Origin: an uncultured virus (IMG/VR IMGVR_UViG_3300006802_000088) | Lineage: Duplodnaviria > Heunggongvirae > Uroviricota > Caudoviricetes | Strand: one strand, 5' to 3' | Virus record (IMG/VR): IMGVR_UViG_3300006802_000088 | Length of the DNA: 64,000 bases | Part shown: positions 2,771 through 58,207 of the stretch, in pieces | How positions within the stretch are numbered: the first letter of the stretch is position 1 | Layout: each line of letters starts with the position of its first letter | Program-made: the position numbers and the translations under genes | Notes under the pieces: model-generated | Database searches by the model: none | Told to the model about the DNA's origin: nothing | What the model saw: only the letters and a program-made list of their open reading frames with translations

Positions 2771-2772
2771 TT

Positions 2773-3252: not shown

Positions 3253-3258
3253 TAAAAA

Positions 3259-26585: not shown

Positions 26586-27119
26586 CTAAAGTGTATCAAT
26601 ACCAATATCGTCAAATAACCACTTATTCTCCAAAAGCGCCCATAAGGCTCGGTCTACGGCCGTGTCTTCTAGGTCAAATTCTCTTAGCAGGGACCTGTGG
26701 GCAGAAATGCCTCGCTTTAAAAAATCAACTTCTTGCCAACCATCACTTACCAGCATTTCTTTGCCCGTCTCTATCATGACGGTAACTTCATCAAGGCGTC
26801 TATCAACATGAAATTTAAATCTTTTAATCTTCATCAACCTTGCCGCGTATGCAGATTTAGCTTCTGCTGCAAGACGTCGACCAGTAGGGCCCATTGATTC
26901 ATATCTAGTTTTATCAATTTCGGCATCTTCCTCAATTGATTCAATTTGGTCTTGGATGTTGTTGGAAAGAGCGACTAGGGCCGTTTGCCATCTACCCCAA
27001 TTGTCTTTGTTTAAAAGTTCTTTTTTATGCAATGGGGAAATTTTATTTTTAACGTCTTCTGCAACTATTCTTGCAAATGAATCATCATTCATCATTTTGT
27101 ACCACTCCACGCTGGACAT
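26586..27119 (-). CDS. Hypothetical protein
   Basis: 177-aa ORF in operon; start uncertain. Confidence 0.6.
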   Translation of the reverse strand: MSSVEWYKMMNDDSFARIVAEDVKNKISPLHKKELLNKDNWGRWQTALVALSNNIQDQIESIEEDAEIDKTRYESMGPTGRRLAAEAKSAYAARLMKIKRFKFHVDRRLDEVTVMIETGKEMLVSDGWQEVDFLKRGISAHRSLLREFDLEDTAVDRALWALLENKWLFDDIGIDTL

Positions 27120-30713: not shown

Positions 30714-32753
30714 ATGGCCTGGAACTCAAGTAGTAATAAGTCGCTAAATAACGACAAAGTCAAATCTGTTGGTCCTGGTGCTCCCATTGCCTCGAACCCA
30801 ACTTTTGCAGGCAAAGCCTATAAAGACGGCTGGGATATTGAACGTGCATACAAAGAGGGAATGCAGAAAATCACATGGGTTGCGCGATGTATAGACGCAA
30901 TCGCTGGAAATCAGGCTCGTTTGCCAATCATTCTAAGAAAAGATAATTCACCAGATGGTGAAATACTGACTGGCCGTAAAGCCGAAAATGAAAATTTGCT
31001 TGAAATTTTAAATACAAAATCCAATGTTGGGGAAAATGCTTTCATATTTAGATATCGGCTTTCGTCTCAGCTTCTACTGGGAACACGTGGAGTTTTTATA
31101 GAAAAAATTCGCGGTCGTGACGGGAACATAGTTGGTCTTAGTCTTCTACCACCACAGTCAACAGCGCCAATACCAGACCCAAAAACTTTTGTTTCTGGCT
31201 ACGAGGTGCAGATGCCGTATGGTCAAAAAGTGATAATGAAACCAGATGATGTTTGTTGGATAAGAAGACCCCACCCGATAGACCCATATCTGTCGCTCAC
31301 TCCACTTGAATCTTGTGGTATTGCTCTAGAAATAGAAAATCTTGCAAAACTCTACAACCGAAATTATTTAATGAATGATGGCCGACCAGGTGGACTTCTA
31401 GTTCTTAAGGGCGAAATTGATGATGACGACAAAGATGAGTTGAAAAGTCGTTTTAGGGGAAATATTTCAAAAACGGGATATACGTCAGTAATCTCATCTG
31501 AAGATGGTGTTGACTACATTGATACAAGCGCATCACCGAGAGATGCGGCATATTTGCAAATGAGACAAATAACAAAAGAAGAAATTCTTGCTTCGTTTGG
31601 CGTTCCCGAGTCGGTAATCGGCAACGCAGCTGGAAGGACTTTTTCCAACGCAAGCGAAGAAATTCGTGTCTTCTGGATGGAAACAATGATGCCCCACCTG
31701 GAGCCTTTGGCTAGAGGCTTAGATGAATTGGATGAAAAAAATTATGTGGATTTCGATTTATCAGAAGTACCTATTCTCCAGCTCTACAAACAAGAGCGGG
31801 AAAGATATCTTCTGCAAGAATTCCAAACTGGACTAATCAGCAGCAATGAATATCGGCTTGGGTCTGGTCGCAAAGAAACCGAGAGCGATTTAGCTGACTC
31901 TCTGTTGATGAATCCTAATTTAATTCCAATTTCTAACACTAAGAAAAAAATGGAAGACCAACCGAAGGCTGACATCCCTCAGCCTGGGGCGCCTCCAATG
32001 CCTGGTATGCCCCCTACTCCCGAAATGCCGCCAATGCCAGGCGCACCACCGATGCCGGGCGAGCAGCCACTTGACCCCAACACAATGGCTGGCGCTTTGG
32101 CTCAAAGCACTATCCCACCAGACGCATTGGGCGCTCCCGCAACAACCGCAGCACCTGTCCCCGAAGGAGCGGCAAGCGAATCATCATCGGCAATGATGTA
32201 CAAATCCCAAGAGGACAATGTAAATCAAACAATTTCGCGTTGGGAAGAAATACTGGACAGAAGTCTTGAAAGAGTGTTGGAAAGACAGGAAAGAGTAGTT
32301 CTAGAAAAAGCTGGAAGCAGTAGGGCAAAGAAGGGTTTATTTACTGGCACTTTAGATATCGATTCTCTAATATCTACAGAAACATGGGATAAGCAGATGG
32401 ATGATGATATTCAGCCTGTTTTGTCCGCCATTATCCAGGATTCCATGGCAATAAAATTTGGAGAAAAAGAAAAATCAAAGTCCCTTAAAACCAAAAAAGA
32501 CAGTCATCAGTCTGATATTCGTGCACAAATTGAATCTCAGATGAATCGAATTAAACAAATCAACAAAGAAAATTCTAAGGCTATATATAACACGATGATT
32601 GCTTGCCTCAATATTCCGGGGGAAGAAGAGCGCGCTGTTGAGTTCCGAAAAGCCTTAGTTTCTCTATATGCGAACCTTATTGCAAAACAAATATTTGATG
32701 TTTCCGAAGACGAGACACGTCGTGCATGGAGTTTTGGCCAACAAATTAAATAG
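30714..32753 (+). CDS. Portal protein (HK97 family) with Pro-rich linker and C-terminal extension
   Basis: VARCIDAIA..ARLP, N.GRPGGLL, EILASFGVP..IG, TFSNA, PHLE. Confidence 0.95.
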   Translation: MAWNSSSNKSLNNDKVKSVGPGAPIASNPTFAGKAYKDGWDIERAYKEGMQKITWVARCIDAIAGNQARLPIILRKDNSPDGEILTGRKAENENLLEILNTKSNVGENAFIFRYRLSSQLLLGTRGVFIEKIRGRDGNIVGLSLLPPQSTAPIPDPKTFVSGYEVQMPYGQKVIMKPDDVCWIRRPHPIDPYLSLTPLESCGIALEIENLAKLYNRNYLMNDGRPGGLLVLKGEIDDDDKDELKSRFRGNISKTGYTSVISSEDGVDYIDTSASPRDAAYLQMRQITKEEILASFGVPESVIGNAAGRTFSNASEEIRVFWMETMMPHLEPLARGLDELDEKNYVDFDLSEVPILQLYKQERERYLLQEFQTGLISSNEYRLGSGRKETESDLADSLLMNPNLIPISNTKKKMEDQPKADIPQPGAPPMPGMPPTPEMPPMPGAPPMPGEQPLDPNTMAGALAQSTIPPDALGAPATTAAPVPEGAASESSSAMMYKSQEDNVNQTISRWEEILDRSLERVLERQERVVLEKAGSSRAKKGLFTGTLDIDSLISTETWDKQMDDDIQPVLSAIIQDSMAIKFGEKEKSKSLKTKKDSHQSDIRAQIESQMNRIKQINKENSKAIYNTMIACLNIPGEEERAVEFRKALVSLYANLIAKQIFDVSEDETRRAWSFGQQIK

Positions 32754-32861: not shown

Positions 32862-35800
32862 ATGCCCTCGATGCAGAATGCGGAAATACAATACAAAGCC
32901 AGTGCGGGCACCTTCAATCTCGACGAGGCTCAAGGCATTGTCGAGTGTTTTGTTGCGGGTATTGGAAATAAGGACTCGGTTGGCGATGTTTGCGCAACTG
33001 GAGCTTTTGCTAAAAGCCTTCTAAGAAGAAAACCGCGTGTGGTGTGGGGCCACAATTGGAATGACCCAATAGGTAAGGTTTTGGATATTTACGAGGTTCC
33101 AGCAAGCGACCCTCGTCTACCAATGAAGATGAAAATGGCTGGTATTGGCGGCCTTTATGCAAAAGTTCAATTTAACCTTCAATCAGAGAAGGGCAGAGAA
33201 GCTTTTGCGAACGTTGCCTTCTTTGGCGAAGAGCAAGAGTGGTCAATCGGCTACAAAACACTAAGAGCCCAATACGACCAAAATATGCAAGCCAACATTC
33301 TCTATGAGGTTGAGCTTTATGAAGTCAGCCCTGTTCTGCATGGGGCCAATCAACTCACTGGAACAATTTCAGTTAAAAACGACTCTGGAAAATCTGACAC
33401 GATTGAACGTGCAGTATTTGCTTCTGGGCCTATGCAGGAAGCTGTAAACGTTACCCCTATTGCGTCTCGAGAAAATAATACAGAAGACGATTTACTACAA
33501 AAAATATCTAGCGAATTAGAAAAAAGAACAGCATCAAAAATAAAAATTGTATCTCTTGATAAAAACTCAGTTGTTTTTGATAGGCAAACAAGTGATGGTC
33601 TTGTTTCTAAGTACATGTGCAAATATCACTATGACGGTCAAGAGTTAATGTTCGGGCAACCACAAAGAATAGTTATTCAAAAACCAAACATTAATCCATC
33701 AATAGTTCCTTCTCAGCAGGGTAAACCAACCATGCATGGAAGAGTAACAAAACCAGTGCCTGTTATGCCAATGCCCGTAGCAATTAAGCCTGGAGAAAAC
33801 GGTCCTATTTCCATACCTTTGCCTGTTGTTGTTTATGAAGATTCTTCAAAAAATAAACCAACCACACCAAAGCCGCTAGACAACGAAGAGCAAGCTTTGG
33901 CTGATGCGCTTGTTCGTATAACCAAAAAATACGGCAAGTTCAATGAAGATAAAAAAGGTGTTTACGCGGCCTATACACCAGCGGCAGAAAATGAATTAAT
34001 CAATATTGGAGTTAAATGTTCTAATTGCATTTTCTTTAAGGGAGAAGGTTCTTGCAAGATTATAGATAAAGCCGTCGAAGCCGATGGTCGCTGTAGGTTC
34101 GCAGTTATTCCGCCAGGTGTTGTTGGGGGAAGCGCTATAGATAAAAAAGAATATAACGATTTCTTGGATGAAGAAGAAGTCAAATGGGTCGAAGATATTG
34201 AAGAAAAATATCCAGGCGAATTTATTTTTGGAGTGTTGAGGAACATAATAAAGAGACGCAATAAAAAACGCAAAAAATATAAAGAACTAAATGAATTTGA
34301 TGCGGAAGAATACGCAATCAAGGAAAAAACTTTAGCTTCAGGAAAAGAAAAATTCTTTTATATCCCTGTTGATGTGGAAAATGCTTTTGAAGTAAAATCT
34401 TTACTGGACGCAGTACTGGACCACCATAGGGTTGATTCGTTTGTTGATGAATATGGAATTGTTTTAACATCCGGACTAACAGCCGAATCAGTCGATGCAA
34501 TAAATATTGCAGTAAAAGGCATTGGGACAAGAATAGGAAAAAGAATTGGCAGCAGTCTAATCGATAGACCGAGAATCGGTGACAGAAGAAGCCTTGGTGA
34601 CAGAAGAAGAAAGCTTGGTGACGGAAGAATTGACATACCTACCGGCGGTATGCGTGGCACAAAAAAACCAACAGGAAACCGTCGTGACGTTGATGGTGAT
34701 GGTTGGGCTGATGAAGGCACCACGAACCCAGTATGGGTTGGTCTGCCTTCGGGTACAGACAAAAAACCCACACCATCAGGTACTGGTAAACCCAAAAAAC
34801 GCACTCCAATCTGGGAGCAAAATCGTCGCCCAAGCCCACCAGTCCCTTCGCGACCCAGAGAGTTGTCGGATGACAAAAAACCAGAATCACGTCGGACACC
34901 TCCTCCGGCTCCCCCAAAACCAAAGCCTACAAAAACCCCATCTTCACCACCTCCACCCCCTCGCAAAAAAGAAAAACTATCTTCAGGCACAAAAGATATT
35001 ACTAGACATCGTTCTGCCAAGAAACTAAAAAATCCAGCCGAAGACGCAAAAGAAACAGACTTTGAAAAGATTGCAAATTCATGGCGCGAACAAGGATTGG
35101 GTTGGGTAGAAATTCCGCGATACCCGGCTGACAAAAAACTAAGCAACGATTTCTTGCGCGGCAGGGAACTTGGGTACAACCAAGTAAGAGTGATGTGGAA
35201 TGGTTCGGGCACCTATAAGCGGCCAGCCAATTTTAACGAGAAAGCAAAATCTTCGGTTGAATATAGGACTTGGTTTTTGAACACAGCTAAAACTGCTGGC
35301 GAATACATAAAAAACAGCCGTAAAAGCAGTAATACGAGCGAAGCAGAGAAGGAAATAAATTTTGGCATTCCCGAAGGCATAGAAAACTTTTTGGATGCAG
35401 TGAAGCCAAATGTCTCTGGCTTGAGCATGAACGACAGAAAAGAATTTTTTGGTGCACTAATTCAATATAGGTTAGTACCAGAGAGAGACATATTTGGCGG
35501 AGATTATGGCCTCAGAGGTGCATACGTATACCCTAAAGCCATAGAACCTAAACCAAGCAAAAAACTCAGCAGCGGCAGAAAAGTACCATTCCCTGAAGCA
35601 AAACCAAAGCGCACATCAAAACAGCAACGAGATGACGAAAAAATTTACAAGCGTCGCAACGACGGAGAGTCTCTCGCCGATGTTGCTGAAAGCCTTGGTC
35701 TTTCTCGCGAGGAAGTAAGAAAACGTGAGCAACGACACATGCGTCGTCTTCGCAAAGAAGAGGGCGAAAGACTAAGTGAAGATTCAAATCGTTCCGGTGA

Positions 35801-38800
35801 AACACTGTCTTCTGGACGACGAGAGTACGAAGACAAATCAAAGACTTCGGTTAAAAACATGCCGGCAGATGTTCGGGCGTTTCTGAACCAACAAATCGAA
35901 TCCCAAAGAAAGATAAACAAAAACTCAGATGTTGCAAAACTCTATGAAAAACTTAGAGATGGGTTTGAGTTGGACGCCAAAGAGCGAGACTTCATTATCG
36001 ATTCCCTTGACCGAATTGAAAAACTTTCTACGCAAGACAGCCGCGTATATACCCCTGGACAAAGAGCTTCAGCAAGAAGATTAAATGCGCTTTTGAATAA
36101 AGACAACCCAAATTTCCGGGCCCCCAAAGGAACAGAGTTAAGAGACCTTGATGTTCCTTTGCGTATGGGGGAAGGCGGAAAACTATCTTCTGGACGCGAG
36201 GGCCGAAATCCATTTTACGAGGGTATGCGCGGAATGGATTTCATAAACACAATGAACGGCACTCCGGAAAATTTAAATTTCGAACAAGCTTCAAGAAGAA
36301 GTGACGATATAGGCGCCAACTTTAGGTATTTGCGCGACGCTAAACGTGGTGATTCTTTTGAATTTGAATACAGGGGGAAAATAGTAGAGGTTCACCCTGA
36401 ACCAGGTGAATCTGTTTATTCCACTATGCGACGCCACGAAGATGGGTACTTGTATTTTGTCGGCAGAGCGAAAAGGTCAATTAATCGGGATACCGGGAAA
36501 GAGGAGTATAACGATGGGGTCAACAAAGATGAAAAACCTAGTACTTTTAGGCTAGATTCAATTAATGGTTTGATTTTAGGGGCAGACCATGCTGATAATT
36601 ACTATAAAGAGGGTTACGACCCAATAAACGACAGATTTGTTGACATAGAAGAACAGAGAATCGCTGCACGAAAAGGTCCAAAAAAACTATCTTCTGGACG
36701 TAAAAAAAAAGGGAAGATAACTAAACGTAAACCATTCTCCCCTGAGGACCGACAAAGATTTGCTGACGGAGACCGGTTAAAAGCCAGAACAATTCCGGGC
36801 AAAAAGAAGCCTGGCCCAAGTATTGATGAATTCAGATTAAGCAGTGGATACGGCGGAGGGTCGAGACCTGCTCGTCGTCTTGCTCAATTGAATCGCCGAG
36901 AAGTTGAGCAAATCTATATTCAAGAATCTAGGGGCATGGAAGAACAGGCTAAAAATCTTTTAGCCAATCTCAAAACCCCATCGTTTGACGAAAGCCTTGA
37001 AAAAGGTTCAAAATTAGAGACCATTCGTGGAAATCTCAAGAAAGCATTCACAACTCCAGCGCTTGTTGGTTCTCTGTCGGATAATAAAAACAGAAAAAAA
37101 GACGGACCATGGATGCTTTCGTTTGAAAAATTAAGACCCCTTTTGAGAGACTCTAAGGGCGAACCAATGTCCGATGAAAACATTAAAAAAATGTTTAATC
37201 TCAATGAAGACGAAATGAAAAAATTGCTAGGGAAAAACGGCGCAATATCGTCTGCTTCTGTTCAGTCGTATTTGACTGCACATTCAGATACTAACCTGCC
37301 CGGCGAATCAGATGGACTAATCAGAAAAGTTTGGGGATTTGATTCTGCCCCATACTGGTATGACGGCCTAGAAGATAATAAGCCAGTAAGTCGTGAGGGT
37401 TATGACGCCGCCAAAGACGAATCAACCTTTTTGGCTGCCATCTACCCCTTGGATGCACCTATAGATTTTAAGACTTCAACCGAAATAGATGAAGACGCTC
37501 TTCCTAAAAAGAGAGAAATAGTTGTTGCAGAAGATGTAAAGCGCTCAATAGAAAGCGTGAAAGGAAAAGAATCTAAAGAGGCCTACAGTCTTGACAAGTT
37601 AATTGAAAAACTTAATATGCCAGCTGATTCAGGAAAAAATCGAGAAGAAATAGCTAAAGCTTTTGAGAAGTTACTAGGGGTCCCAACTAGCGCGGAACAA
37701 TTATTTACTTCTCCAGGTTCATGGAGAAGAAATGGTGTACCAACAAATGTGATTTTAGAATTAAAAAAACGTAAGCACATTACTAGTGCTGCCGACGTTT
37801 TTGGTAGTGATGAAGCCAAAAACTTTGACAAAGCAACAGAACAAAATAAATTCTTTAGTGCTTTAGATAATCTCCTAAGAGCAAATGGGATACAAATAGG
37901 AGGAGGTAAGGGCAATCTTTCGGACAGAGTTATTGGTGAAATTATGGGAGACGCTATTGGCTCTAAGCCTTTGGCAAAAATAGGTCGAGCCTTTAAAAAG
38001 GCTGGAGAAGAAAGGCCTTTTACTTACAAAGTGGGCGCCGCTGTCGTTTGGACTCCAGAAGAAATTCAAAAAACTCTTGATGGAATTAATAGAGTAACAG
38101 GAAAAGATTTTAAAGTTTCTGACCTCAAATTAAGTAGCGGCAAATTCGGTAAAGGTGAAAGAAAAGTAACACCAAAATTATCTTCAGGCAGAACTGGGGC
38201 TGAGTCTTTTTCAGCGAACGAATCAATTAACAAAATTGACGAAAGATTGCGTACAGCCAAAAAAAGAGGCTCAAAAGTATTTAATGAAATGCTTCGAGCA
38301 GAAAGTAAAAAACAAAGTTCTCAAAAAGCAAAACCGAATCCACTAGACAAAATGAAAGATGGTGAACGTCTTTCATCGGGCAAACTTGATGAAGTTTATA
38401 AGTCAATCACTCAAAAATTAATTAAAGCAATAGAGACTGCTGATGGAGATAAGTGGGAAGCTCCTTGGTACAAAGTTGGTGCATTCCCTAAAAATCCAAC
38501 CAATAAAAACCGTCCATACTCAAACACAAACTTATTGTTCCTGTTAATGGCGCAAGAAGATAAGGGATACACGAAACCATATTGGGCAACATATAAGCAG
38601 TGGGAAAAATCTGGCGGCCAAGTCAGGGCTGGAGAAAAAGGAACCAAAATTCTCGTCCCAAGAGTTTACAAAGCAAAAGAAGATGATGAGGGCAACAAGA
38701 AAGGCGGCGGAGTATTTTATTCAGTTGCAACGGTATTTAATGTCGACCAAGTAGATGGCGTAGATGTTGAGGAGATGGAGAATAAATTTCCAAAACTTTC

Positions 38801-41800
38801 AGAAGAGCAAAGAGTTTCTCAACTTGAAAGCGCTATTAAAGAAATAGGTGCAAAGATTACCGAAGCCGAATCTGATAGGGCTTACTACAGTCCATCAAAA
38901 GATGAAATAGTTCTACCAAAATTTGAAAATTTTAAATCTCCTTTGGATTTTTACGCGACTCAAGCTCACGAATTAATGCACTGGACCGGACACACATCAC
39001 GTCTAAATAGACCAAACATGAATTATTTTGGTAGTCCAGAATACGCATACGAAGAATTGGTAGCAGAAATTGCTTCTGCTTTCTTTATGGCAGCACATGG
39101 TCTCTCCGCGGAGCCGCAGCCACAGCATGCGATGTATCTTGCTTCATGGCTTAAGCGACTCAAATCAGACCCTGATGCTCTGCAAAAAGCAGTTTCCGAT
39201 GCACAAAAAGCTGTAAATTTCGCCATCAAACTGTCCCCGAGCATGAGTAAACAAATGGCCGTATCAGAAAACGTAGATGACGTGCCTGGGATAACGGTCC
39301 CCGACACTGGCGGCAAGTTGTCGTCGGGTAAAACTCCTGATTTACCTGCTCTTACTAGGGCGCTCGAAAACGCAGGGCTTGCTGAATCAGTAACCGAAAA
39401 TATGATTACTGAAGCTATTAGTGTATGGAAGGACAACCCTTCGCTACATAGGCAATATATTGAGCGTCTTGACGGAGATGTTAATGGCGCAGTGTTCTCT
39501 CTCTATAACGATTATCTCGAAGATATGTTTGACCGCTCTCCAGAGGGAGCCGCAAAAATAGAACGCGAGCTTGATGAACAATATGAAGCAACACAAAGCC
39601 TTTCGTCAGGCAGACCATCAAAAAGACTTTCGCGTCGACTAAAAGATGATGAATCATCAAAACTTTCATCTGGCAAGCAACCATGGGATGACCCCGCTGT
39701 ACAGAAAAGATTAATAGACGGTGCAAGAACAAAAAAGAAAACCAAAGCCGATGGTAAAACCGAAAGTTACATGGCAAGCATGGTTAGACAATTTGACGCA
39801 GGGAAAAAACTGACAGACAATCAGTGGAAACCTCTGTGGGAAAGCTTCGGCGGCGAAACCTCGGCCACGAAACCAAGCACACCGTCGACTGCATCAACAA
39901 GTAAAGCCCTTAAGCCATTTAGCGGCCTTAAGCGTAAAGAAATAGACCTGTCTGATGTTAAAAAATATGATTACCCAACGACTGATGCTAAAGGAAAGAA
40001 AAAACCACTTCCGACAGAAGAGCAATCAGATGCGATAGATGCAATGATGACCGGCAGTGACGTTAAGGTTGCCGCATTAGCCGCAACCGGTAAAACTACT
40101 ACGGTAATCAATTTTGCAAATCGACTTCTAGATGAAGAACCTGAATCAAGAATTCTTTATTTAGTATTTAATAAAAATGCTGAAAGAGACGTTGTAAAAC
40201 GTGGCATGCCAGAAAACGTAACAGTCAGAACAATGGACGCAGTTGCCTTCCGCGCCATGAAAACAATTGATTCGAAAATGACTGACAAAAGTTTTAATCC
40301 ATCAATAAAACCAATCAAGTCTTTCCGAGATAGAGCGGCATATCTTGGTGTCAAGAGAATGGTGTCTCGGGGAGACGAGCTAACATCTGCCGATGTTGTG
40401 AAAAGAATAGCAAAAGCCGTAGAACATTTTTCGATTAGTAGCGATACGGAAATCGGACCAAAACATTTTAATGGAAAATTTAATGGAAAGCTTGCTGTCG
40501 ACGATGATGCAATACTCCCGGAATTAGTGGCACTTGCCAACAAGTACTGGAAAGATATTAAAACTCCACGAGATGGAGTTGCTGGAATGTTGCCAGTCAA
40601 TAACACACATATTACAAAAATGTGGGCTTTATCAAAGCCAGACATAGGTTCATCAATGGGTGTAAATATCGCAATGGTCGATGAGGCGCAAGATATGAAC
40701 CCGGTTTTTGCTGAAATTTTACAAAAAGCAAATAAGGTGCAAAGAATATATATAGGCGATACAAACCAGGCCATAAATGCTTGGCGCGGCGCGGATGGAC
40801 AGACTCTTGTCGACGCTTCAGCTAAATACACAATGCCAATAACTGATTCGTTTAGATTTGGTAAAAATATTGCAGGCATAGGCAATAGATTTCTTTCGCT
40901 ACTTGGAGCTAAGGAAAAAATGAATGGTCGGAAAGTGGATAAATCCGGCAACCCGGTAGATGGGCTTATTGGGAACGTAGAAAATCCAACAATGATTCTT
41001 ACTCGCTCAAATGGTGGAGCGATGGCCGCAACGATGAAGAGTTTTGAAAAAGGCCTAACCGTCTATGGCAGCAAAAACTTCAAAGAAGATTTAACAAAAT
41101 TTATTGACAATGTTGAATACATGGAAACATCCGCTAATGGCAAAAAAGGTTATTACACCAGCGCTGATGGTAGAAAAATCTATGAAAGACCATCAATGAG
41201 TCAAGACCTTGATGGCATCAGCAATATTAAAGAATTTAAAGAAGCAGTGGAAAAGGGTGATGATAATAGGCTAAATATGCTTAACAAGCTGTTGAGCGAA
41301 CATGGCGTTGAAGAACTTCGAGATGCCCTTGGCAGAATCATAACCGATGAAAAAAAATTACCCAAAAACCGTGATGAATATGTTCACATACAGACAGCAC
41401 ATACGTCTAAGGGTCTAGAGTCGCCCAGAGTCCAAATATGGAGCGATTTTGCTAAACCCAAAAAAGCTACCGATGGCACAAACATCACAATAATGCCCAA
41501 CGAGCAAGAGCTCAGACTTTCTTATGTGGCGGTCACCAGGGCTGAAGAAAAACTAGATTTGGGTTCTTTGTCGTGGATTTATAATCATACGAGCGACGAG
41601 GATGGCGCATCGAACAAACTCAGTTCCGGCGCAAACTTGTTGATGCCGAGACTTTCTGGAACACTTTCGAACGCCATAATTAATTCAACACCGGCGGCTC
41701 GTAAAATGAGGAAGGAATGGAAAAAGCGCGAATCAATGTCTGGACACCCATCTAAGAGAAAGGGTATAAAATTAAGTTCCGGAAGATATCTTAATTTTGA

Positions 41801-42200
41801 ACGAATATTGTCTTCGGATGAACTTGATGACAACCTAGAACCAATTAGGGGGCCTTATGGGGACCCATATGACTCAATCCACCGAAAGCAAGTCAGATAT
41901 GCGGTTCGCCGTTTCAAACATACCGAATCCGTTCCAGTCCGTCAGCGTAGTACTGGGTTCCCTACTGGGCGTATGGTTGAAAGAACCAGGACATATTTCT
42001 GGATTGAAGACATGAAGACCAACCAAACCCCAGTATGGGCTTCGGGTATTTTTTACTACAGAAACCATCTAATAGGAAGATTACAATCACACCTAAATTC
42101 GTTGTCGGAAGACGAAAAAGCCGCACTAGTAAAAGAATACGAAAAAAGTGCCAAAACATTTACCCGTCGTACGAAGGATGAATTAAAAATTCCATCCTAA
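32862..42200 (+). CDS. HK97-type prohead protease fused to multidomain cargo (HTH, WYL-like, ArdC-N plus zincin metallopeptidase, UvrD helicase)
   Basis: N-term DSVGD...GAFAKSL...WGHNWNDPIG...EWSIGY...LYEVSPVLHGAN; later WATYKQW...VRAGEKG, HELMHWTG...YAYEELVAE, ATGKT/VDEAQD/GD.NQAI/TAHTSKGLE/YVAVTRA. Confidence 0.9.
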   Translation: MPSMQNAEIQYKASAGTFNLDEAQGIVECFVAGIGNKDSVGDVCATGAFAKSLLRRKPRVVWGHNWNDPIGKVLDIYEVPASDPRLPMKMKMAGIGGLYAKVQFNLQSEKGREAFANVAFFGEEQEWSIGYKTLRAQYDQNMQANILYEVELYEVSPVLHGANQLTGTISVKNDSGKSDTIERAVFASGPMQEAVNVTPIASRENNTEDDLLQKISSELEKRTASKIKIVSLDKNSVVFDRQTSDGLVSKYMCKYHYDGQELMFGQPQRIVIQKPNINPSIVPSQQGKPTMHGRVTKPVPVMPMPVAIKPGENGPISIPLPVVVYEDSSKNKPTTPKPLDNEEQALADALVRITKKYGKFNEDKKGVYAAYTPAAENELINIGVKCSNCIFFKGEGSCKIIDKAVEADGRCRFAVIPPGVVGGSAIDKKEYNDFLDEEEVKWVEDIEEKYPGEFIFGVLRNIIKRRNKKRKKYKELNEFDAEEYAIKEKTLASGKEKFFYIPVDVENAFEVKSLLDAVLDHHRVDSFVDEYGIVLTSGLTAESVDAINIAVKGIGTRIGKRIGSSLIDRPRIGDRRSLGDRRRKLGDGRIDIPTGGMRGTKKPTGNRRDVDGDGWADEGTTNPVWVGLPSGTDKKPTPSGTGKPKKRTPIWEQNRRPSPPVPSRPRELSDDKKPESRRTPPPAPPKPKPTKTPSSPPPPPRKKEKLSSGTKDITRHRSAKKLKNPAEDAKETDFEKIANSWREQGLGWVEIPRYPADKKLSNDFLRGRELGYNQVRVMWNGSGTYKRPANFNEKAKSSVEYRTWFLNTAKTAGEYIKNSRKSSNTSEAEKEINFGIPEGIENFLDAVKPNVSGLSMNDRKEFFGALIQYRLVPERDIFGGDYGLRGAYVYPKAIEPKPSKKLSSGRKVPFPEAKPKRTSKQQRDDEKIYKRRNDGESLADVAESLGLSREEVRKREQRHMRRLRKEEGERLSEDSNRSGETLSSGRREYEDKSKTSVKNMPADVRAFLNQQIESQRKINKNSDVAKLYEKLRDGFELDAKERDFIIDSLDRIEKLSTQDSRVYTPGQRASARRLNALLNKDNPNFRAPKGTELRDLDVPLRMGEGGKLSSGREGRNPFYEGMRGMDFINTMNGTPENLNFEQASRRSDDIGANFRYLRDAKRGDSFEFEYRGKIVEVHPEPGESVYSTMRRHEDGYLYFVGRAKRSINRDTGKEEYNDGVNKDEKPSTFRLDSINGLILGADHADNYYKEGYDPINDRFVDIEEQRIAARKGPKKLSSGRKKKGKITKRKPFSPEDRQRFADGDRLKARTIPGKKKPGPSIDEFRLSSGYGGGSRPARRLAQLNRREVEQIYIQESRGMEEQAKNLLANLKTPSFDESLEKGSKLETIRGNLKKAFTTPALVGSLSDNKNRKKDGPWMLSFEKLRPLLRDSKGEPMSDENIKKMFNLNEDEMKKLLGKNGAISSASVQSYLTAHSDTNLPGESDGLIRKVWGFDSAPYWYDGLEDNKPVSREGYDAAKDESTFLAAIYPLDAPIDFKTSTEIDEDALPKKREIVVAEDVKRSIESVKGKESKEAYSLDKLIEKLNMPADSGKNREEIAKAFEKLLGVPTSAEQLFTSPGSWRRNGVPTNVILELKKRKHITSAADVFGSDEAKNFDKATEQNKFFSALDNLLRANGIQIGGGKGNLSDRVIGEIMGDAIGSKPLAKIGRAFKKAGEERPFTYKVGAAVVWTPEEIQKTLDGINRVTGKDFKVSDLKLSSGKFGKGERKVTPKLSSGRTGAESFSANESINKIDERLRTAKKRGSKVFNEMLRAESKKQSSQKAKPNPLDKMKDGERLSSGKLDEVYKSITQKLIKAIETADGDKWEAPWYKVGAFPKNPTNKNRPYSNTNLLFLLMAQEDKGYTKPYWATYKQWEKSGGQVRAGEKGTKILVPRVYKAKEDDEGNKKGGGVFYSVATVFNVDQVDGVDVEEMENKFPKLSEEQRVSQLESAIKEIGAKITEAESDRAYYSPSKDEIVLPKFENFKSPLDFYATQAHELMHWTGHTSRLNRPNMNYFGSPEYAYEELVAEIASAFFMAAHGLSAEPQPQHAMYLASWLKRLKSDPDALQKAVSDAQKAVNFAIKLSPSMSKQMAVSENVDDVPGITVPDTGGKLSSGKTPDLPALTRALENAGLAESVTENMITEAISVWKDNPSLHRQYIERLDGDVNGAVFSLYNDYLEDMFDRSPEGAAKIERELDEQYEATQSLSSGRPSKRLSRRLKDDESSKLSSGKQPWDDPAVQKRLIDGARTKKKTKADGKTESYMASMVRQFDAGKKLTDNQWKPLWESFGGETSATKPSTPSTASTSKALKPFSGLKRKEIDLSDVKKYDYPTTDAKGKKKPLPTEEQSDAIDAMMTGSDVKVAALAATGKTTTVINFANRLLDEEPESRILYLVFNKNAERDVVKRGMPENVTVRTMDAVAFRAMKTIDSKMTDKSFNPSIKPIKSFRDRAAYLGVKRMVSRGDELTSADVVKRIAKAVEHFSISSDTEIGPKHFNGKFNGKLAVDDDAILPELVALANKYWKDIKTPRDGVAGMLPVNNTHITKMWALSKPDIGSSMGVNIAMVDEAQDMNPVFAEILQKANKVQRIYIGDTNQAINAWRGADGQTLVDASAKYTMPITDSFRFGKNIAGIGNRFLSLLGAKEKMNGRKVDKSGNPVDGLIGNVENPTMILTRSNGGAMAATMKSFEKGLTVYGSKNFKEDLTKFIDNVEYMETSANGKKGYYTSADGRKIYERPSMSQDLDGISNIKEFKEAVEKGDDNRLNMLNKLLSEHGVEELRDALGRIITDEKKLPKNRDEYVHIQTAHTSKGLESPRVQIWSDFAKPKKATDGTNITIMPNEQELRLSYVAVTRAEEKLDLGSLSWIYNHTSDEDGASNKLSSGANLLMPRLSGTLSNAIINSTPAARKMRKEWKKRESMSGHPSKRKGIKLSSGRYLNFERILSSDELDDNLEPIRGPYGDPYDSIHRKQVRYAVRRFKHTESVPVRQRSTGFPTGRMVERTRTYFWIEDMKTNQTPVWASGIFYYRNHLIGRLQSHLNSLSEDEKAALVKEYEKSAKTFTRRTKDELKIPS

Positions 42201-42354: not shown

Positions 42355-44061
42355 ATGAATAGCGATGAAAAAGCTACGGTCAATATCGATGCCGATGGGG
42401 CTGTCGTAAAATGCGCAAAAGGTCTTGCGTCAGGCGAGTGCGGCTACGTTAAAGGCGCTGAAATATGCGGCAAATGTGGAGCTATGGCTGTTGAAGTCAA
42501 AATGGTTCCAGTAGATATTTTTAACACAAAAGGTGATAAACCGGAAATGGACGAAGAATACATGAAAATGGCAGATGACTCTTATCCAATTGAAAATGAA
42601 GATGACCTCAAAATGGCAATTATGGCTGTCGATGATGCAGAAAACCCTCAGGCTGCAAAAATGCATTGCATGAAGCGTGCACAAGAACTTGGCAAGGAAG
42701 ACATGATTCCTAAATCTTGGATGTCGGAAAAAATGGATGATGAGGAGCACAGCGAAGCGAAGGCTGCTGACATGGGCGATGACGAAGACATGGGCGACGA
42801 CGAAGACATGGATGATGAAGAAGACACGGACGAAGATGAAGACATGGATGAAGACGAAGACATGGATTCGGAAGAGAAAGCTGCATCAACGGACGACGAA
42901 GACGAAGACATGAACGAAGACATGAACGAAGACATGGATGAAGACGAAAATGAAGATGAAGATGAAGATGAAGATGAAGAAGACATGACTGAAGATGAAG
43001 ACATGGATGAAGACGAAGAAAAAAGCATGTACATGCCCTTTAAGGCCAAGAAGCGTAAAAAGGGAATGAATTCAGACATGGACGTTGAGATAGACGAAGA
43101 AGGCGACGCAGGACTTGCAGAAGAAATGGAACCAATGCGTAAGCGTCGAATTGAATCAATGGGTATGAAATCTGAAGATTTCTCAAATAATGGCTACGTT
43201 TGCGCAATTGAGCGCAAAGCCTATGGTGGCGGCGTATCTGTATGTGATGACTGCCCAGGCGGTTGTGTGTCAGAAAAAGGCCTACCTGGCCTTCTTCATA
43301 TTGAAGGACTTGCCGAAGAGATGTTCGATGGCAGCGTTATTGACTCTGGCTACTCTGCGAATGCAGATATGTATGTTGTTGATGTCCAAGTCAAAGATGG
43401 TCGTGCGGTAGAAGTTTTCGTAGACGGCACAACGGCCGAAGTTGTAGGTTGGCATAAACTCGATGAAAACGTATTTGAGTCAAAATCAGCAGACAACGAA
43501 CTTACATTGATTAGCTTCACCGAAGCAGCAGAAATAGCCGTCAAGTCAATTGACGGTCATGTTGTCGCTGTAGAGCCCGACACATTCGAAGGCTACGATG
43601 CGTACGCCGTAGAAATTGATGGTTTTGACGGCAAGTCTTACGACGTGTTTGTTGCCATGGATGGAGAGGTTCTTGGTTACGACAAATATGAGCCAGAAGA
43701 GGCAGAAGAGATTGAGGCAGAGGCTGCAGAGATAGCTCTTAAGAGAGCATTTTCCGAGGACCAGAGAAATTCAATGGCCAAAGAAGGAACTGCTCTTCCA
43801 GATGGTTCATTCCCAATTGCTTCTTCCGAAGACCTTCGTAATGCAATTCAGGCTTTTGGTAGAGCAAAAGACAAGAATGCCGCAAAGCGTCACATAATGA
43901 AGCGCGCAAAAGAAATGAATATGGAAAAATTGATTCCAGCAACTTGGTTGGTGAACGAAAACATTGAAAGCAAAGAAAAATCTGCTGAACAAGTTGAGGG
44001 AGAATTCCTTAAATCATTAGTAGAGTTTCAGCTTCTTGAATTAGAAGAAGACTCAATCTAG
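42355..44061 (+). CDS. Acidic head-associated protein with D/E repeat, duplicated helical module and PepSY-like domains
   Basis: YPI..EDDLKMAI...AKMHCMKRA..LG...IP.SW and ALPDGSFPI..EDLRNAI...AKRHIMKRA...IPATW; ISFTEAAEIA...GHVVAVE...YAVEI...SYDVFVAMDGEVL. Confidence 0.7.
   Translation: MNSDEKATVNIDADGAVVKCAKGLASGECGYVKGAEICGKCGAMAVEVKMVPVDIFNTKGDKPEMDEEYMKMADDSYPIENEDDLKMAIMAVDDAENPQAAKMHCMKRAQELGKEDMIPKSWMSEKMDDEEHSEAKAADMGDDEDMGDDEDMDDEEDTDEDEDMDEDEDMDSEEKAASTDDEDEDMNEDMNEDMDEDENEDEDEDEDEEDMTEDEDMDEDEEKSMYMPFKAKKRKKGMNSDMDVEIDEEGDAGLAEEMEPMRKRRIESMGMKSEDFSNNGYVCAIERKAYGGGVSVCDDCPGGCVSEKGLPGLLHIEGLAEEMFDGSVIDSGYSANADMYVVDVQVKDGRAVEVFVDGTTAEVVGWHKLDENVFESKSADNELTLISFTEAAEIAVKSIDGHVVAVEPDTFEGYDAYAVEIDGFDGKSYDVFVAMDGEVLGYDKYEPEEAEEIEAEAAEIALKRAFSEDQRNSMAKEGTALPDGSFPIASSEDLRNAIQAFGRAKDKNAAKRHIMKRAKEMNMEKLIPATWLVNENIESKEKSAEQVEGEFLKSLVEFQLLELEEDSI
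42770..43020 (+). repeat. Asp/Glu/Met coding tandem repeat (GACGAAGACATG-like)
   Basis: DMGDDEDMGDDEDMDDEED...EDMNEDMNEDMDEDE. Confidence 0.9.
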
Positions 44062-44077: not shown

Positions 44078-47000
44078 ATGACGGGGAAGCCGTTTCGCAA
44101 AACAAGAATAATAATTTCAGACAAATTAATATCTGCTCGCACCGAGATTAAAAATACTGATTCTTCTGCGCATTTTTTTAAAAATGCCGTTTCTGAATCA
44201 ATGAGTTCACCTCGCCTTGACGCCGATTTAGCCATTAAAAGCTTGGGCTCGAGTATTGGTTCAAAGAAAAAGCCAACATACGACAATACGGACAATAAGA
44301 CCCGAACCAATTCAGGCGGCGAACCAGGAATGGTGGTCACCCCTGATGGCTATAGATACCAACCAAAAGAAAAAAATGGTCCAGGCAAAAAACTTGTTTT
44401 GTTTCCTTCGCAAAAAAGTCGAGAGTCAAACGGGAAAACTAGCAATTTCGGCTGGCTTGATAGAGAAAATACAAGCAGCATAAAAAACTATATTCAGCAT
44501 CAAAAAGAACAACCCCAAATAAGAATTAGAAAGTTTAAAGTAAATCCCAAGACGGACGAAATTATTCCTGGTTCAGACATAGAAATGTCTCCGTTCCGCA
44601 AAGATAATAATTCAGAAAACAATATTTCTGAAAAAATGCTTCCAGGAAGAACTCTTGGGTCAAGAGGAACATCACTAATAGGTAGGGCTGCAGGAAAATT
44701 CGGCATAGTAAGGGATGCTTTAAACAAGTTCAGATGCCCGCCAGGAACCCCAGCCGCAAACCAATTTACGGACCACATGGGAAGCAATTGCTTTGGTCAG
44801 TCAGCAGGAGACTTAGTTGACTTTGCGATAGACGCTTTTCAAGCAGCCCGCAAAGCTTTTACTGAACCAAACTCTCGAGAAACATTATCTAAATTTTTTA
44901 AAGAAGCAGCTTATGACGCCGACAATGGAAGATTTGGTTCTTTTTTTGCTCGGACAATGTGGCGCGATGCTGATGGAAACAAAATACGTAATTTACGTAA
45001 ATGGAACTCAGAACTAAGAGAAGGTGAATACAAAATATTTGCGGGAGGCATGGCAAATGCGCAGCTCGAACTTGAAGCTCAAGATAATCGAATAGCGAAT
45101 CTTCGTGACTTGCTGGGAATACCAAGCACCCCAGAAACAAGAAAAAATAACGACGACCTTCATGAAATATTTAGGATTTTAAAAGAGAGAGGAATGCTAA
45201 ACGTAACCCTTGGCAGCCCAAATCCCCAAGAAGAAGGAGAGGGACAACGACCTACCCCTGAGCAGGTAGCTCAAGTGGTTGAAGCAAGACTCAGGGCAGT
45301 ACCGGGATTTAGCGAGCTACCAAGAGAACAGCAAAAAAGAGTCATTGCAAATGATATTGAAAGATTCTACGAAACGGAACGAGCTTTGTTGGAAGGGTTT
45401 CTAGATGAATACGTCAAAAATCCAGAACATATGGGAACTATCAAAAACCTCATTTATGAATACAAGACGTCGCCGCCATTTAAATCGTTAGATGAAGCAA
45501 GCTATGACGCAAATGTCATAAACGGCCAAGCTATTGGTGAAATAAGAATTGATATTCCTTTTATAATGTATTCACAAGAAACAATGCTGCCTCAACTGGC
45601 AGATAATGAAAGACTAAGAATTGATGTTGTTGGCGCAAAAACCGATTCTGAAGCAGCTAAACATCTTGGCGATTTCTTATTAACTACTGCCCAACATTCC
45701 AAGCAACATGCGGCAACGGTCGAAGAAAGAGGGTTTGCACGACACATAATTAAACACGAAATAGCACACTCAATTCAGGCCAGGGCGTTCTTTGATGAAG
45801 CCAAAAGACAAATTAACGAAAATGGTTTCATATCAATTGGGGATAAAAAAATTGAAAGCCTAGATAAATTAACTGGTTCAGATTTGATTAGCCTCATGAG
45901 CCAATCAGCTGATTCCATCAATCTTGAACAACTCAGCAAGGCTTTATCAAGAACAGAAAATATTATGTTCATGGCCGGGGAATACCCTCGAGCCTACATA
46001 AGCGAAGGTCGTGAGCTCACGGCAATTGAAGCAACAGCAGAGCTTTGGGCTCTAAGAAACGCAGGGCTGATTTGGGGCGACGATGTTGATGCCGCTCTTG
46101 AGTGGATGGACAATATAGCTGATGGACGAATCGGAGAAAAAAGGGTTCGCTCCGATATGGAAACAATGAGAATTGTTGAAGATTCATATTATCTAAGCCC
46201 TGGCGAGTCTTCTGCTCCTTGGTACGTACCAGAAGACCCAGTTGCTACAGCTGCGGCGAAAAAACGAGCAGAAAATAAAGCGCTTAAAGCTTCTATTGAA
46301 AAATTAGACCATGACACAATTATTGACGAACTTGCGCAACTCGAATTTAAAAAAGATGAAATTAATTTAAAAATCAATGCTGCAAAAGCCATAGGTGAAG
46401 ACGTTTCTGATTTAGAAAAACAATTATCAGAATTGAAGAGTGATGAAAAAATTATTCGTTCTGTATGGAAAAAGAAATATGGTACCGGCTCCGAAGACGC
46501 TACGGCTCTCAAGCTATTAATTAAAAAAAGAAGAGAAGAACATGGTGCATTTACGCCAGACGTTCTTGAATCAAAAATTCGTGACAAAAAAATAATGGCA
46601 GCAAAAGCCGATGCGGCGACTATAGACAGCTTGGACGAATTGGTGGAAATGATGGCGGCTTATGACTTGGACATAAGACTTGCAACCAGCGATAAAGACA
46701 AAGGATTAAAGCGTGAAGAAAGAAAGGCATACCTTAGTCGATACCGAGCACTCCTTGATAAATCCGGCGACTCTCGTAGTTGGGTTGAGCAAAAGCGTGA
46801 AATGGAAGAAAAAATAGACAGAATTCTTAGGCCTACGAAGACTGCGCCACTCAAAAAACCCAAAACCCCAACAACCGATAAGCAAGCTACAGATGTGGGT
46901 AATAAAGCAAGAGAAGAAGCGCTACGCACAGCTACGCCTAGACAAAGAATTGCGGTTTCAGAATTTTCTGACTCACAAACATCGTCAGTGGCTCAGTTGT

Positions 47001-50000
47001 TTGATGCGGAAAAAAGGGATTTAGCTCTTGCTGGCATGAAGGAAAGAAATCAAAGGCTAAAAAAACAAGGCCTCAAAATCGACCCTACATTACGAGGTGA
47101 GGCGTCACCCGAAGAGCAGGTCGAAAATATTCTTATTCCAACAATGGAAATTATCGACAAATCCAGAATTGGCACAAACCTAGAAGTAGAGGCAGAAATT
47201 GAAGTAGATGTCAATGACGTTACTGGGGAAATTTCGCTTTCGGAAATTACGCATGACTCATTTATAAGCGGACGTGTTTTATCTAAGAAAAATCCATTTT
47301 CTGTAGATTCAAAAACCAAACCTCCAGTTAATGGAAAACAAAAAAGAAAAATAATAATTCAAACCACCGAAGAAGATAGAGGTATATTCCCTCATTGGTC
47401 AATGGATGTTGACAAAGATGATAAGCGCCCACAAAAGCTAGTTTTACCTCCAGGCAAGTTGAAAGTCGTAGAAATACGAGACGACGGAACAGTAATCGCT
47501 CAAATATCTGAACAGAAAGATACTGAATCAGTGTTAGATACCTTGGTCGCTGCTGATATTAAAGGAACCAGGTTTCGTTCAGTTGCCGACAGGTACATAG
47601 TTGAGCGTAGAGAAAACAAAATCCCACGCGAACAAAAAAGACCACTAAAAGCGCAAGAAACCCAAGACCGAGGAATTCTCGCCACTCGAGAATTAAAGAG
47701 AAGAGGTGGACGTTTTGGTCAAGGTCTTGATGATGACGACATAGATGAATCGTCTTCAAAACTTTCTTCTGGCAAGATTCGCACCAGAATCCAGGTCAAG
47801 TCGGAAAGAATTAAGACAGAAAAAGAAAACATTGCAGACGTCAAGGCTGTTCTCACAGGTAATGAACCAACTAAATTCAAATCACTTTCTCGTGACTCCT
47901 TGGACCCAGAGGTGGCTGAATTAATTATAAAAAACGAGCCAGAACAAATCATCAAATTAGTCGAAGACGCTGCAGTTGAACTACATAACAGCATGGATAA
48001 AAGAACAAGAGTCAGAATGAGGGAGTCCGAACTCAATAATTTTGTTTCTTCTGGTACTTACAATCCAAGATTGCAAGCAGAAACAGTTCTGGATTCAGAA
48101 TCAAAGCCAAATAGCAGGCTAAAACGCAGGATTAAGGACTTTAGGGATAAGGCAAAACAGGCTGCCGCCGCCCAGGGGGCCAAAGATGAATTCAGAAAAT
48201 TAAAAGAAGCAAATCTAGGCAACGGCGAACTACATAAACTGGATGATGCAACATTAATGAGCAACCTTGGCCTAGAACGCTCAAAACAAAAAAGTGTTAT
48301 TTCAGATAATCCAATATATAGAACAAACTCTGCCGAACAAGCAATTGCTTTGTTGGCTCTTGGCTATGAAGTAGAAGTTCCAGACAGAGCCGAACGAAAG
48401 ATGGTCAAAAATGCAGCGCTACAAACCGAAAAAGAACTTAAAACTCTTGCCGGAACAGAAGCTGACAGTCTTGGATTATCTGGTGACGAAAAAGATAAAT
48501 ACATTAAAAATTTTATGGAAACGCACGATATAGACCTTTGTGGCTTATATGAGGTCGGACGAAATCTCTTTTGTAACGAAAACATTGGAGTCAATCGTGA
48601 ACACATGCCACAGAGCGGAGGTCCCACTAAGGGAGCCAATTCACCAGCGATGAGGGCTTTAATATCTGGCCATGTTGGCGGTGAGTATAAGGATGCCTTT
48701 AACCCTTCTTTGTCTAAAGAAGATAAGGAACGATATTTGGCAATAGTGAAAAATCTGGGAAATCCTGACAAGTTTGCGAGCGTTAGTGAAGAAGATAAAA
48801 AATGGGCATTCGACAATACTGTTTGGAGCAAAGTCGAGGTTGCGACAGAACCCGAATTGATAAAATTTCTAAAACAAACCCTTCCTGGTGGAGAAGACTC
48901 AATCGTCCGTAAGTCAAAAAATCCAGACGACCTTTTTGCATCACAAAAACAATTAAAAAATGCACAAATTGATAAGACTGCTGAAAACATTTACGACCAA
49001 TACATGGCCGCCAGAGACAAGTGGGGCAAGCCGGGGACTGAAGAATTTATTAAAAATCGTCAAAATTTTTTGGATTCAAAAGAGGCATGGTTTCAGGGGG
49101 CAATACTTACGTCAAGGGATGGGTATGTAGTTGACGGACATCATCGATGGGCTGGCATCAAAATGCTTAATGACCATTTGCCAGAAGATGAAAAAATTCA
49201 AGTTCAAGTAAACGAATTGCAAACATCTATTTTTGAAGCCCTGACTTTAGCAAAAGTATTTCAAGAACATATGGAAATTAAAGGAAAAACTGTAGGAAAA
49301 GTTGTTCCTTATGAGGATGGCGAAACCAAGCCAATGTCCAAAGCAGATTTTGATGAACATATGGCGCTATTAAATAATCAGATAAAAGAAAAAATTCAAG
49401 AAATAAAAGACAAGAACATCTATCCAATTAAAGTCAAAAATCTTGCAGCCAATAACGAACCACGTTCTCCGGGTCTCAAAGATAGTCGCGACAGGTCTGT
49501 GCGAATATACGGCATGGAGTGGAAGCCGGAATACTCAGAGAACCAGGCACTTGAGGCATCCAAGAAATGGGATGGGTGGGATGATGTTCCGCTTACGGAA
49601 ATTGATTTGTCATCAGAGATTCGTCCAACCGAATCCCACTTAAAAGGTTCAGCAATAGATAGCGTTGTTTCCGGCGAAGTTCCTTTTAGAGAGGGTTATC
49701 ATCCGCATATCGTCATAGACGTTGATGGGAAAATGTATGTGTCTGATGGACACAATAGAGTTGCCATGAATCGTGCTTTAGGGAATCAGAAAATACAAGC
49801 ACGAGTAGTCGACCTTCGAAAAGTTGATGCACCATGGGGGGCGGTAGACCCAAGTAAGAAAAATTACAAAGGCTACGACCTTGTCGACCCACCAAATCCT
49901 TTTCCAAAGGATGGCACATATCCGGTCGAGATAGTGGAGGCAGCTAAACAGCAACGAGAAAAGATAGAAAAAGTAGAAAAAGAAATTACGGAAACATTAA

Positions 50001-58191: not shown

Positions 58192-58207
58192 GTGGGACAA
58201 TAGTTAT

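Follow-up and report, generated by a model that had tools for sequence, protein, structure and literature searches.

The subject of this report is a single very long gene in the DNA of an uncultured tailed phage (Caudoviricetes; IMG/VR record IMGVR_UViG_3300006802_000088), from which a stretch of 64,000 nucleotides, hereafter called the window, was analysed. The gene (32862..42200, on the plus strand, as are all of the features described below unless marked otherwise) encodes a protein of 3112 amino acids (aa), P0001, a chain of 345 kDa known to us from the translation of its open reading frame (ORF) and from Pfam and PHROGs matches, which begins with an HK97-type prohead protease domain and carries the tetrapeptide L-S-S-G 14 times. 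It is placed between the genes for the portal protein and the major capsid protein (MCP), i.e., in a head-module position. The portal gene (30714..32753; Pfam Phage_portal, E = 7e-48; phrog_2662) lies directly upstream, and the large terminase gene (29097-30404; Pfam and PHROGs) is on the minus strand on the same side. On the other side are the genes for an acidic scaffold-like protein of 568 aa (42355..44061), a second giant virion protein of 2649 aa (44078..52027) and an HK97-fold MCP (56772..58130; Pfam Phage_capsid, E = 2e-43). The second giant has a MuF/gp7-like head-morphogenesis region (phrog_7625, E = 6e-27, at aa 1947-2147), where there is also a weak RelA_SpoT match below the cut-off (E = 2.3e-4), and the window's copy has no Pfam domain above the cut-off. 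Ten records share the gene order polyprotein, acidic protein of ~500 aa, second giant (1738-2896 aa), two small genes, a ~670-aa gene, two ~240-aa genes and MCP, and in these 10 syntenic records the portal gene is kept upstream and the gene for an HK97-fold MCP downstream of the S78 protease gene. The best explanation of the product of 32862..42200 is that it serves as the head-cargo polyprotein of an uncultured tailed phage with a large genome (about 160 kb).

A single polypeptide here combines an S78 protease, a helix-turn-helix (HTH), ArdC-N, MPTase and UvrD helicase domains and cassettes to which no function can be assigned. The N-terminal unit (aa 1-708; 32862..34985) consists of the S78 domain, a middle region that is conserved and contains four Cys, and a long linker, rich in Arg, Gly and Pro, that extends to the first LSSG. 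A first-pass annotation of the window had placed an HK97-type prohead protease at the start of the ORF, and the Peptidase_S78 match (Pfam PF04586, aa 26-169; 32937..33368) is indeed above the curated cut-off (E = 1.5e-9; 38.7 bits against a cut-off of 21), with a further match to phrog_80, head maturation protease (1.2e-25). H64 (in GHN) and S128 (in EWSIGY), which we take to be the active-site His and Ser of the S78 family and whose catalytic role is predicted, are invariant in 14/14 aligned relatives and in two Gordonia phage proteases. The four-Cys stretch of the middle region (C-x2-C ... C ... C; 33990-34110, aa about 377-417) is nearly invariant in relatives and could be a zinc ribbon; Pfam offers only a weak HIPIP match for it (E = 0.15).

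Behind this unit lie three regions of recognizable kind, for each of which Pfam agrees with the label given in the first-pass annotation. The Sigma-70 region 4-like HTH (aa 926-965; 35637..35756; Pfam Sigma70_r4, E = 7.1e-6) sits within the cassette spanning aa 905-984; it is modelled by AlphaFold2 at a predicted local distance difference test score (pLDDT) of about 90, its fold matches those of sigma region 4 and LuxR HTHs (Z 6-7.6), and it was the only cassette recognized in a fold search with the 1161-residue model. ArdC-N (aa 1844-1947) is joined to an MPTase-PolyVal zincin (PF18818, aa 1987-2112, with an intact HELMH) at 38391..39197 (Pfam 2.7e-26 and 8.1e-40), and the ArdC-N/MPTase region matches the anti-restriction protein phrog_7245 (2.3e-79). 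The third is a UvrD-like superfamily 1 helicase (UvrD aa 2386-2656 and UvrD_C aa 2742-2898; 40017..41555; Pfam 1.4e-12 and 4.6e-7), which also matches the DNA helicase phrog_1967 (7.4e-69). A WYL-like label that had been given to 36183-36687 did not stand: aa 1110-1277 match no Pfam family at E <= 1, and the AlphaFold2 model of this cassette (aa 1111-1278; 36192..36695; no assigned function), with some beta strands, is of low confidence and leaves the fold open. The most widespread cargo module of all (aa 1329-1759; 36846..38138), which belongs to a cluster found in 117 proteins, gave nothing above the cut-off in Pfam and no usable match in Atlas; for its AlphaFold2 model (mean pLDDT 62) Foldseek returned no match at E <= 0.001 and VIA-align nothing above Z 4.7, single helices only.

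The 14 copies of LSSG in P0001 compare with 0.10 expected from its composition, and in 2000 shuffles of the protein the mean was 0.11 and the maximum 2; the 3112-aa ORF and all 14 Leu-codon coordinates in the first-pass annotation were found to be exact. Numbered from the N-terminus, the sites are site 1 (aa 706, EK-LSSG-T; 34977..34988), site 2 (aa 902, KK-LSSG-R; 35565..35576), site 3 (aa 982, ET-LSSG-R; 35805..35816), site 4 (aa 1108, GK-LSSG-R; 36183..36194), site 5 (aa 1276, KK-LSSG-R; 36687..36698), site 6 (aa 1326, FR-LSSG-Y; 36837..36848), site 7 (aa 1757, LK-LSSG-K; 38130..38141), site 8 (aa 1773, PK-LSSG-R; 38178..38189), site 9 (aa 1837, ER-LSSG-K, 7 aa before ArdC-N; 38370..38381), site 10 (aa 2153, GK-LSSG-K; 39318..39329), site 11 (aa 2247, QS-LSSG-R; 39600..39611), site 12 (aa 2268, SK-LSSG-K; 39663..39674), site 13 (aa 2920, NK-LSSG-A; 41619..41630) and site 14 (aa 2971, IK-LSSG-R; 41772..41783). 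The preceding residue is K in 10 copies, R in 2, and T and S in 1 each, and the following residue is R in 7, K in 4, and T, Y and A in 1 each, which bears out the basic flanks that had been described, (K/R)LSSG(R/K), for 12/14 sites on the left and 11/14 on the right. The earlier observation that codons differ between copies also holds: the 12-nucleotide strings that encode the motif include 13 distinct ones among the 14 copies, and all four of the strings quoted then are present. Three of the sites are linked by short DNA similarity (17-19/23 nucleotides), and there is no long DNA repeat among the LSSG sites of the ORF. Because so many different codon strings encode the motif and no long DNA repeat accompanies it, the signal resides in the peptide and not in the DNA. 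An LASG at aa 491 was considered as a fifteenth site and set aside, as homologous blocks do not end there (median distance 175-189 aa). Immediately after site 5 there is an in-frame run of nine A's (AAA AAA AAA; 36702-36710), the longest A run in the ORF, at which a one-base slip in either direction would lead to a stop within 2-4 codons and a form of ~1285 aa; the cassette consensus of relatives has no KKK at this position.

Conservation of the motif was examined in a homologue search limited to proteins of 1711-5446 aa, in which 7993 candidates were scored and 303 relatives were obtained at E <= 0.001; the motif statistics rest on the best 120 of these 303, window protein included (119 others), all of them metagenomic. 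In 119/119 of these homologues no 4-mer is commoner (ties counted) than an LSSG-type motif or a word that overlaps it, and [LFM]SSG is present in a median of 11 copies per protein (range 1-21), with at least 4 copies in 112/119. In the pooled proteins, whose counts are not independent events since the homologues were chosen by likeness to the query and are mutually related, LSSG occurs 1084 times against 11.3 expected (96-fold), FSSG 199 times against 5.8, MSSG 49 times against 4.2 and LASG 74 times against 12.5, and every LSSx other than LSSG is enriched at most 2.6-fold. Conservation of the motif at the peptide level, on which the first-pass annotation had staked its interpretation, is thus family-wide. 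In IMG/VR as a whole, 334 loci encode relatives of the N-terminal 473 aa, and those of the records that are complete (by terminal repeats or a completeness rating of 100%) measure 156-172 kb.

The positions of the motifs with respect to units of homology are equally regular. For a test of borders, P0001 was cut at its motifs, the pieces were compared with relatives less than 80% identical, and the ends of the matches were extrapolated. For most cassettes the homologous blocks ended at a median of 0-7 aa from a motif of the relative, as compared with 87 aa for random positions. The 50-aa cassette between sites 5 and 6 has its border at the motif in 94% and 90%, respectively, of 72 diverged relatives, the boundary at site 9 is kept in 92% of 89 relatives, and the boundaries at sites 7, 12 and 13 are 15 aa or less from the motif in 74% of 50, 62% of 42 and 64% of 42 relatives. 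The ten residues on each side of the motif have, in all homologues, a hydrophobic fraction of 0.15-0.19 as against 0.275 overall. An AlphaFold2 model of aa 690-1850, in which mean pLDDT is 51 and 57% of the residues are below 50, contains confident domains at aa 724-874, 918-968 (the HTH) and 994-1094, each between two motif sites, and all nine of the modelled sites, 1 to 4 and 8 among them, fall in coil with pLDDT<50 (chance value about 0.006). The motifs do bracket domains, as had been claimed: every Pfam domain found lies between two motifs, and 0/14 motifs fall inside a Pfam envelope.

The relatives of P0001 are mosaics of one another whose pieces meet at these sites. Motif-bounded segments of the 120 proteins form 199 clusters, and when the proteins are written as strings of clusters, all of the full-length ones start with the protease unit, which forms one cluster, is found in 113/120 proteins and is always the first module. 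Among the remaining proteins, which have no N-terminal protease unit, P0020 is a separate cargo ORF and the others may be truncations at contig ends. Beyond the first module the order varies, with ArdC, the helicase and a pair of clusters, "5-1", occurring in at least three orders, and cassettes may be duplicated (17 17, 67 67 67, 2 2 and 7 7 in the cluster strings). The presence of individual cassettes varies as well: that at aa 985-1110 of the window protein recurs in 8 proteins and that at aa 1111-1278 in 36, and other relatives carry pentapeptide-repeat, KTSC or RNase T cassettes. The motif is found at nearly every cassette border, even between cassettes of 16-50 aa. The earlier suggestion of swappable cassettes at LSSG joints is therefore upheld, with reordering, duplication, gain and loss in relatives exactly at the joints, and comparison within the family shows LSSG to be a conserved junction code at which cassettes are shuffled.

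Nor is the motif confined to the polyprotein. The second giant of the window has a K-LSSG-K site at aa 1229 (47762..47773), with the K flank seen in the polyprotein sites, and 1-6 copies of the motif occur in the second giant in 9/10 of the syntenic records. The residue that precedes the motif in the second giant is the one that precedes it in the polyprotein of the same genome, namely K in the window, R in G003, G007 and G011, S in G004 and G in G005 and G006; only 1 of 5000 genome permutations reached the observed agreement between the two giants. In the complete 160-kb genome G002, 16/21 [LFM]SSG are in the two giants, which make up 12% of ORF residues, and in ORFs flanking the polyprotein genes of 79 loci the motif density is 0.07 per 1000 aa, as compared with ~4.5 in the window polyprotein. 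A 1405-aa protein encoded outside the head module of G002 (L192, G002:C1, 12730-16947, minus strand) has a K-FSSG-R with full basic flanks at aa 36, which could be an N-terminal propeptide site.

Sister clades have GLASST or G(L/M)RS in place of LSSG. In G012, G-L-(A/R/S/K)-S-S-T occurs in four large proteins (4, 5, 5 and 3 copies against 0.1-0.4 expected); in G009, G-L-(R/A/K)-S occurs seven times in a protease protein of 1788 aa (0.25 expected); and in P0145, GMRS occurs seven times (0.04 expected). A hydrophobic residue (L, F or M) and a Ser two places on are constant across these variants, for which the common core is L-x-S.

Some idea of how this architecture arose can be had from proteins in which protease and cargo are not joined. 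In the Gordonia phages GMA6 and Gray, a related protease (36% identical) and an acidic tail form one protein of 455-484 aa, and at its end the GMA6 tail shares 54% identity (E = 7e-24) with the C-terminal end of the separate 568-aa acidic ORF of the window. Because the fused tail of GMA6 matches what is a separate ORF here, insertion of the cargo appears to have separated the protease from its scaffold-like tail. A search of shorter proteins yielded 995 relatives of the N-terminal unit, including stand-alone units (460-610 aa, 0-1 motif, contigs as long as 180 kb) and forms of 1000-1200 aa. In G005 the cargo is in two ORFs, and P0020 is a cargo protein of 2713 aa with 17 LSSG and no protease, which starts MG-LSSG and is probably on one contig with a 608-aa protease unit, P0123, since the contigs of the two are equal in length. 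Fusion to the protease thus seems to be common in this family and is not required.

We consider it likely that LSSG is a cleavage site. HK97-type proteases are normally co-assembled in the procapsid, and the N-terminal unit (aa 1-708) would carry the whole chain in with it: 14 cassettes that follow this unit and are joined by exposed linkers, each with (K/R)-L-S-S-G-(R/K). Once the shell is complete, the protease would cut the linkers, in cis or in trans, most likely after the second Ser (L-S-S|G), and the same would happen to the sites in the MuF-like second giant. Action in trans is supported by the presence of the motif in further giant virion proteins of these genomes. The freed enzymes would stay in the head, leave it with the DNA and blunt the defences of the host; we infer packaging in the virion and delivery with the DNA from the head-module context. 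That the S78 protease cuts LSSG inside the procapsid and that the pieces are then ejected is, in our estimation, probable, with a good deal of room for doubt. Since every joint has the same short code, cassettes could be added, lost, duplicated or reordered with no new processing signals.

The choice of enzyme is guided by several observations. Of the peptidases, the protease domain alone is shared by every member of the family, and it is 77-84% identical across clades. In the MCP, which is without LSSG, an L-T-S at aa 94-96 (57051..57059) marks the likely border between delta domain and mature capsid protein. It is conserved in the MCPs of relatives, with L-(S/T)-S-(R/H)-E-I-K at aa 94-100 kept in 10/10 LSSG-type records, and similarity to the MCPs of Cantare and MseS-P1 starts at aa 97/98, just after L-T-S. 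This L-(S/T)-S fits a maturation site with the same core as the cargo motif. An "LISG" at aa 59-62 of the MCP was discarded as a candidate, since it is not conserved among MCPs. Herpesvirus assemblins follow the rule (V/L)-x-A|S, with a hydrophobic residue at P3 and a small one at P1, and T4 gp21 cuts after (L/I)-x-E. It is because of the analogy with recognition of a hydrophobic P3 and a small P1 in assemblin-fold proteases that the putative cut is placed at L-S-S|G. In the phage SPN3US, the prohead protease gp245 is described as cutting head and ejection proteins C-terminal to AXE (PMC10052503). Protease residues that might track the flank class (K/R, G or S) were sought as well; the most informative columns are only in the variable N- and C-terminal fringes and provide no pocket candidate.

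A different explanation, which we regard as unlikely, is that the motif is not cut at all and is a linear motif in flexible linkers, serving as a docking or tethering peptide (to the capsid interior, the portal or DNA) or as a site of Ser modification in a protein built as beads on a string. Its basic flanks could bind DNA, and there are precedents for large proteins delivered uncut, the N4 virion RNA polymerase and plasmid ArdC/TraC1, according to the accessible text of the paper in which Iyer, Burroughs, Anand, de Souza and Aravind defined the polyvalent proteins of phages and conjugative elements in 2017 (PMC5512222). Uncut linkers do not sit well, however, with a motif at nearly every border, including those of the shortest cassettes, with a protease at the head of the chain, with the joining of cassettes whose targets are DNA, restriction complexes and transcription, or with split forms in which a cargo ORF starts MG-LSSG.

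That the embedded zincin, and not the prohead protease, does the cutting, whether this takes place in the head or follows injection, seems to us quite unlikely, even though the window protein has an MPTase with an intact HELMH, PF18818 is found in 104/119 homologues, and release of domains by the MPTase is what has been argued for polyvalent proteins (PMC5512222). The remaining 15/119 homologues have no PF18818 and no HExxH anywhere and yet have 5-11 motif sites, and it is because these relatives keep their sites that the data favour the S78 prohead protease over the MPTase as the cutting enzyme. The head module of G006 has 10 GLSSG in its polyprotein and 4 in its second giant, with no MPTase in the 48-kb record, and G012 (91% complete) has no PF18818 match and carries its variant motif in four proteins; both records are incomplete and amount to no proof. 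A complete genome of the zincin-less clade was not found in IMG/VR, where its longest record is 48 kb. Cutting after delivery by a host protease, or by a phage protease from outside the head module, is very unlikely, for although the MCP has no LSSG and the protease core stays the same whatever the motif flank, the motif is concentrated in the giant head-module proteins, as the figures for G002 and for flanking ORFs indicate, its variants differ between closely related phage clades, and no other peptidase family was found in the window ORFs of at least 120 aa that were scanned.

Several points weigh against assigning the cleavage to the S78 protease and against the scheme as a whole. The records that lack the zincin are 24-91% complete, so that a zincin elsewhere in those genomes is possible. 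The MCPs do not contain LSSG, and in the cargo G is near-invariant after L-S-S, so that the capsid site may be some other signal; at the corresponding MCP position G009 has GLER and G012 has FNQA, both unlike the cargo motif of the same genome. The protease core is nearly identical across clades that have different flanks or variants, and the covariation of flanks between the two giants may stem from exchange of cassettes inside one genome rather than from a specificity that co-evolves. No such motif is seen in the Gordonia relatives of the protease: in GMA6 and Gray, as in the Brevibacterium phage Cantare, protease and capsid protein are without an LSSG-type motif, for which reason cultured relatives are uninformative on specificity. 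The closest cultured capsid protein, from Gordonia phages, is 46% identical, and the family is without a cultured relative. Since relatives with a stand-alone protease unit exist, fusion cannot be essential to the process, and the head may be too small for 345-kDa fusions present in as many copies as HK97-type proteases usually are.

The remaining genes of the window touch the subject less closely. Auxiliary-type genes lie at 278-3849 and 62062-62859 (a sulfotransferase, an Asp/Asn beta-hydroxylase-like protein, two 2-oxoglutarate-Fe(II) oxygenases and a TauD-family dioxygenase), and a phosphoadenylylsulfate (PAPS)-reductase-like gene is at 23052-24194 (minus). Beside the terminase there is a recombination pair (26586-28553, minus), consisting of a Rad52/Erf-like annealing protein (27858-28553) and a PD-(D/E)XK/Cas4-like exonuclease (27092-27868). 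A DUF3721 protein (55927-56619) is encoded just upstream of the capsid gene and a staphylococcal-nuclease-like protein (58175-58609) just downstream, and a tRNA-Arg (TCT) gene (63076-63150, minus) adjoins an HNH endonuclease gene (63150-63743, minus).

Whether a true polyprotein strategy exists among double-stranded DNA (dsDNA) phages, in which an HK97-type protease both loads a set of anti-defence enzymes and cuts them apart at a lineage-specific junction code, is a question on which we find the balance even. If it does, any cassette flanked by the code would be a packageable and releasable cargo, the rapid shuffling across hundreds of lake and other metagenomic phages would be explained, and an S78 protease would for the first time have a defined sequence specificity. 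Should the code be a cleavage signal, the processing of polyvalent proteins would become a precise and testable rule that specifies enzyme, site and products, and sequence alone would suffice to predict which mature anti-defence proteins hundreds of uncultured phages produce. It would also show how a phage evolves its injected arsenal by exchange of cassettes, and it might furnish a portable tag with which foreign proteins could be loaded into HK97-type capsids of laboratory phages.

Literature searches brought up no description of the LSSG motif or of the protease-cargo architecture, with one unrelated match for LSSG, phage and protease, and the accessible part of a jumbo-phage paper by the authors of the polyvalent-protein study (PMC7824862) added nothing on this architecture. 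The system nonetheless has likenesses to several that are known. As far as the available text of PMC5512222 goes, polyvalent proteins likewise unite in one huge polypeptide, encoded beside virion genes, a large number of enzymatic and DNA-binding domains that are unrelated to each other and include ArdC-N with MPTase as well as helicases, and their delivery with the DNA and processing into units have been proposed, with the MPTase as the agent of domain release and with RNA-virus polyproteins as the comparison. In the same text the assemblin-like peptidase is rare and always C-terminal, whereas here every full-length member opens with S78, and the present family has a nameable junction motif where that text gives none. 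RNA-virus and retrovirus polyproteins resemble the present one in having one chain with its own protease and short junction signals, from which separate enzymes are released; there is no homology, and here the bearer is a dsDNA phage, the products are accessory rather than replicative, and the cleavage is one that we infer. The proteins of the Gordonia phages GMA6 and Gray (protease domain 36% and capsid protein 44-46% identical) are without cargo, whereas in the window ~2400 aa of cargo stand between the protease and the scaffold-like part. With T4 (gp21) and the phiKZ-like SPN3US (gp245) the likeness is that one head protease serves several head or ejected proteins through a short shared motif (for SPN3US, PMC10052503), and the motif is similarly found in several head proteins here, in the polyprotein and second giant of 9 records and in four proteins of G012. 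In T4 and SPN3US each substrate is a protein of its own, from which in most cases an N-terminal propeptide is removed, whereas here the sites lie between the 15 modules of one protease-headed chain, with L-S-S-G (core L-x-S) as the motif and an HK97/S78-type enzyme as the protease. Both kinds, the polyvalent proteins and the head proteins that a prohead protease processes, are thus already known, and an N-terminal S78 domain and a nameable junction motif set the present family apart from the former.

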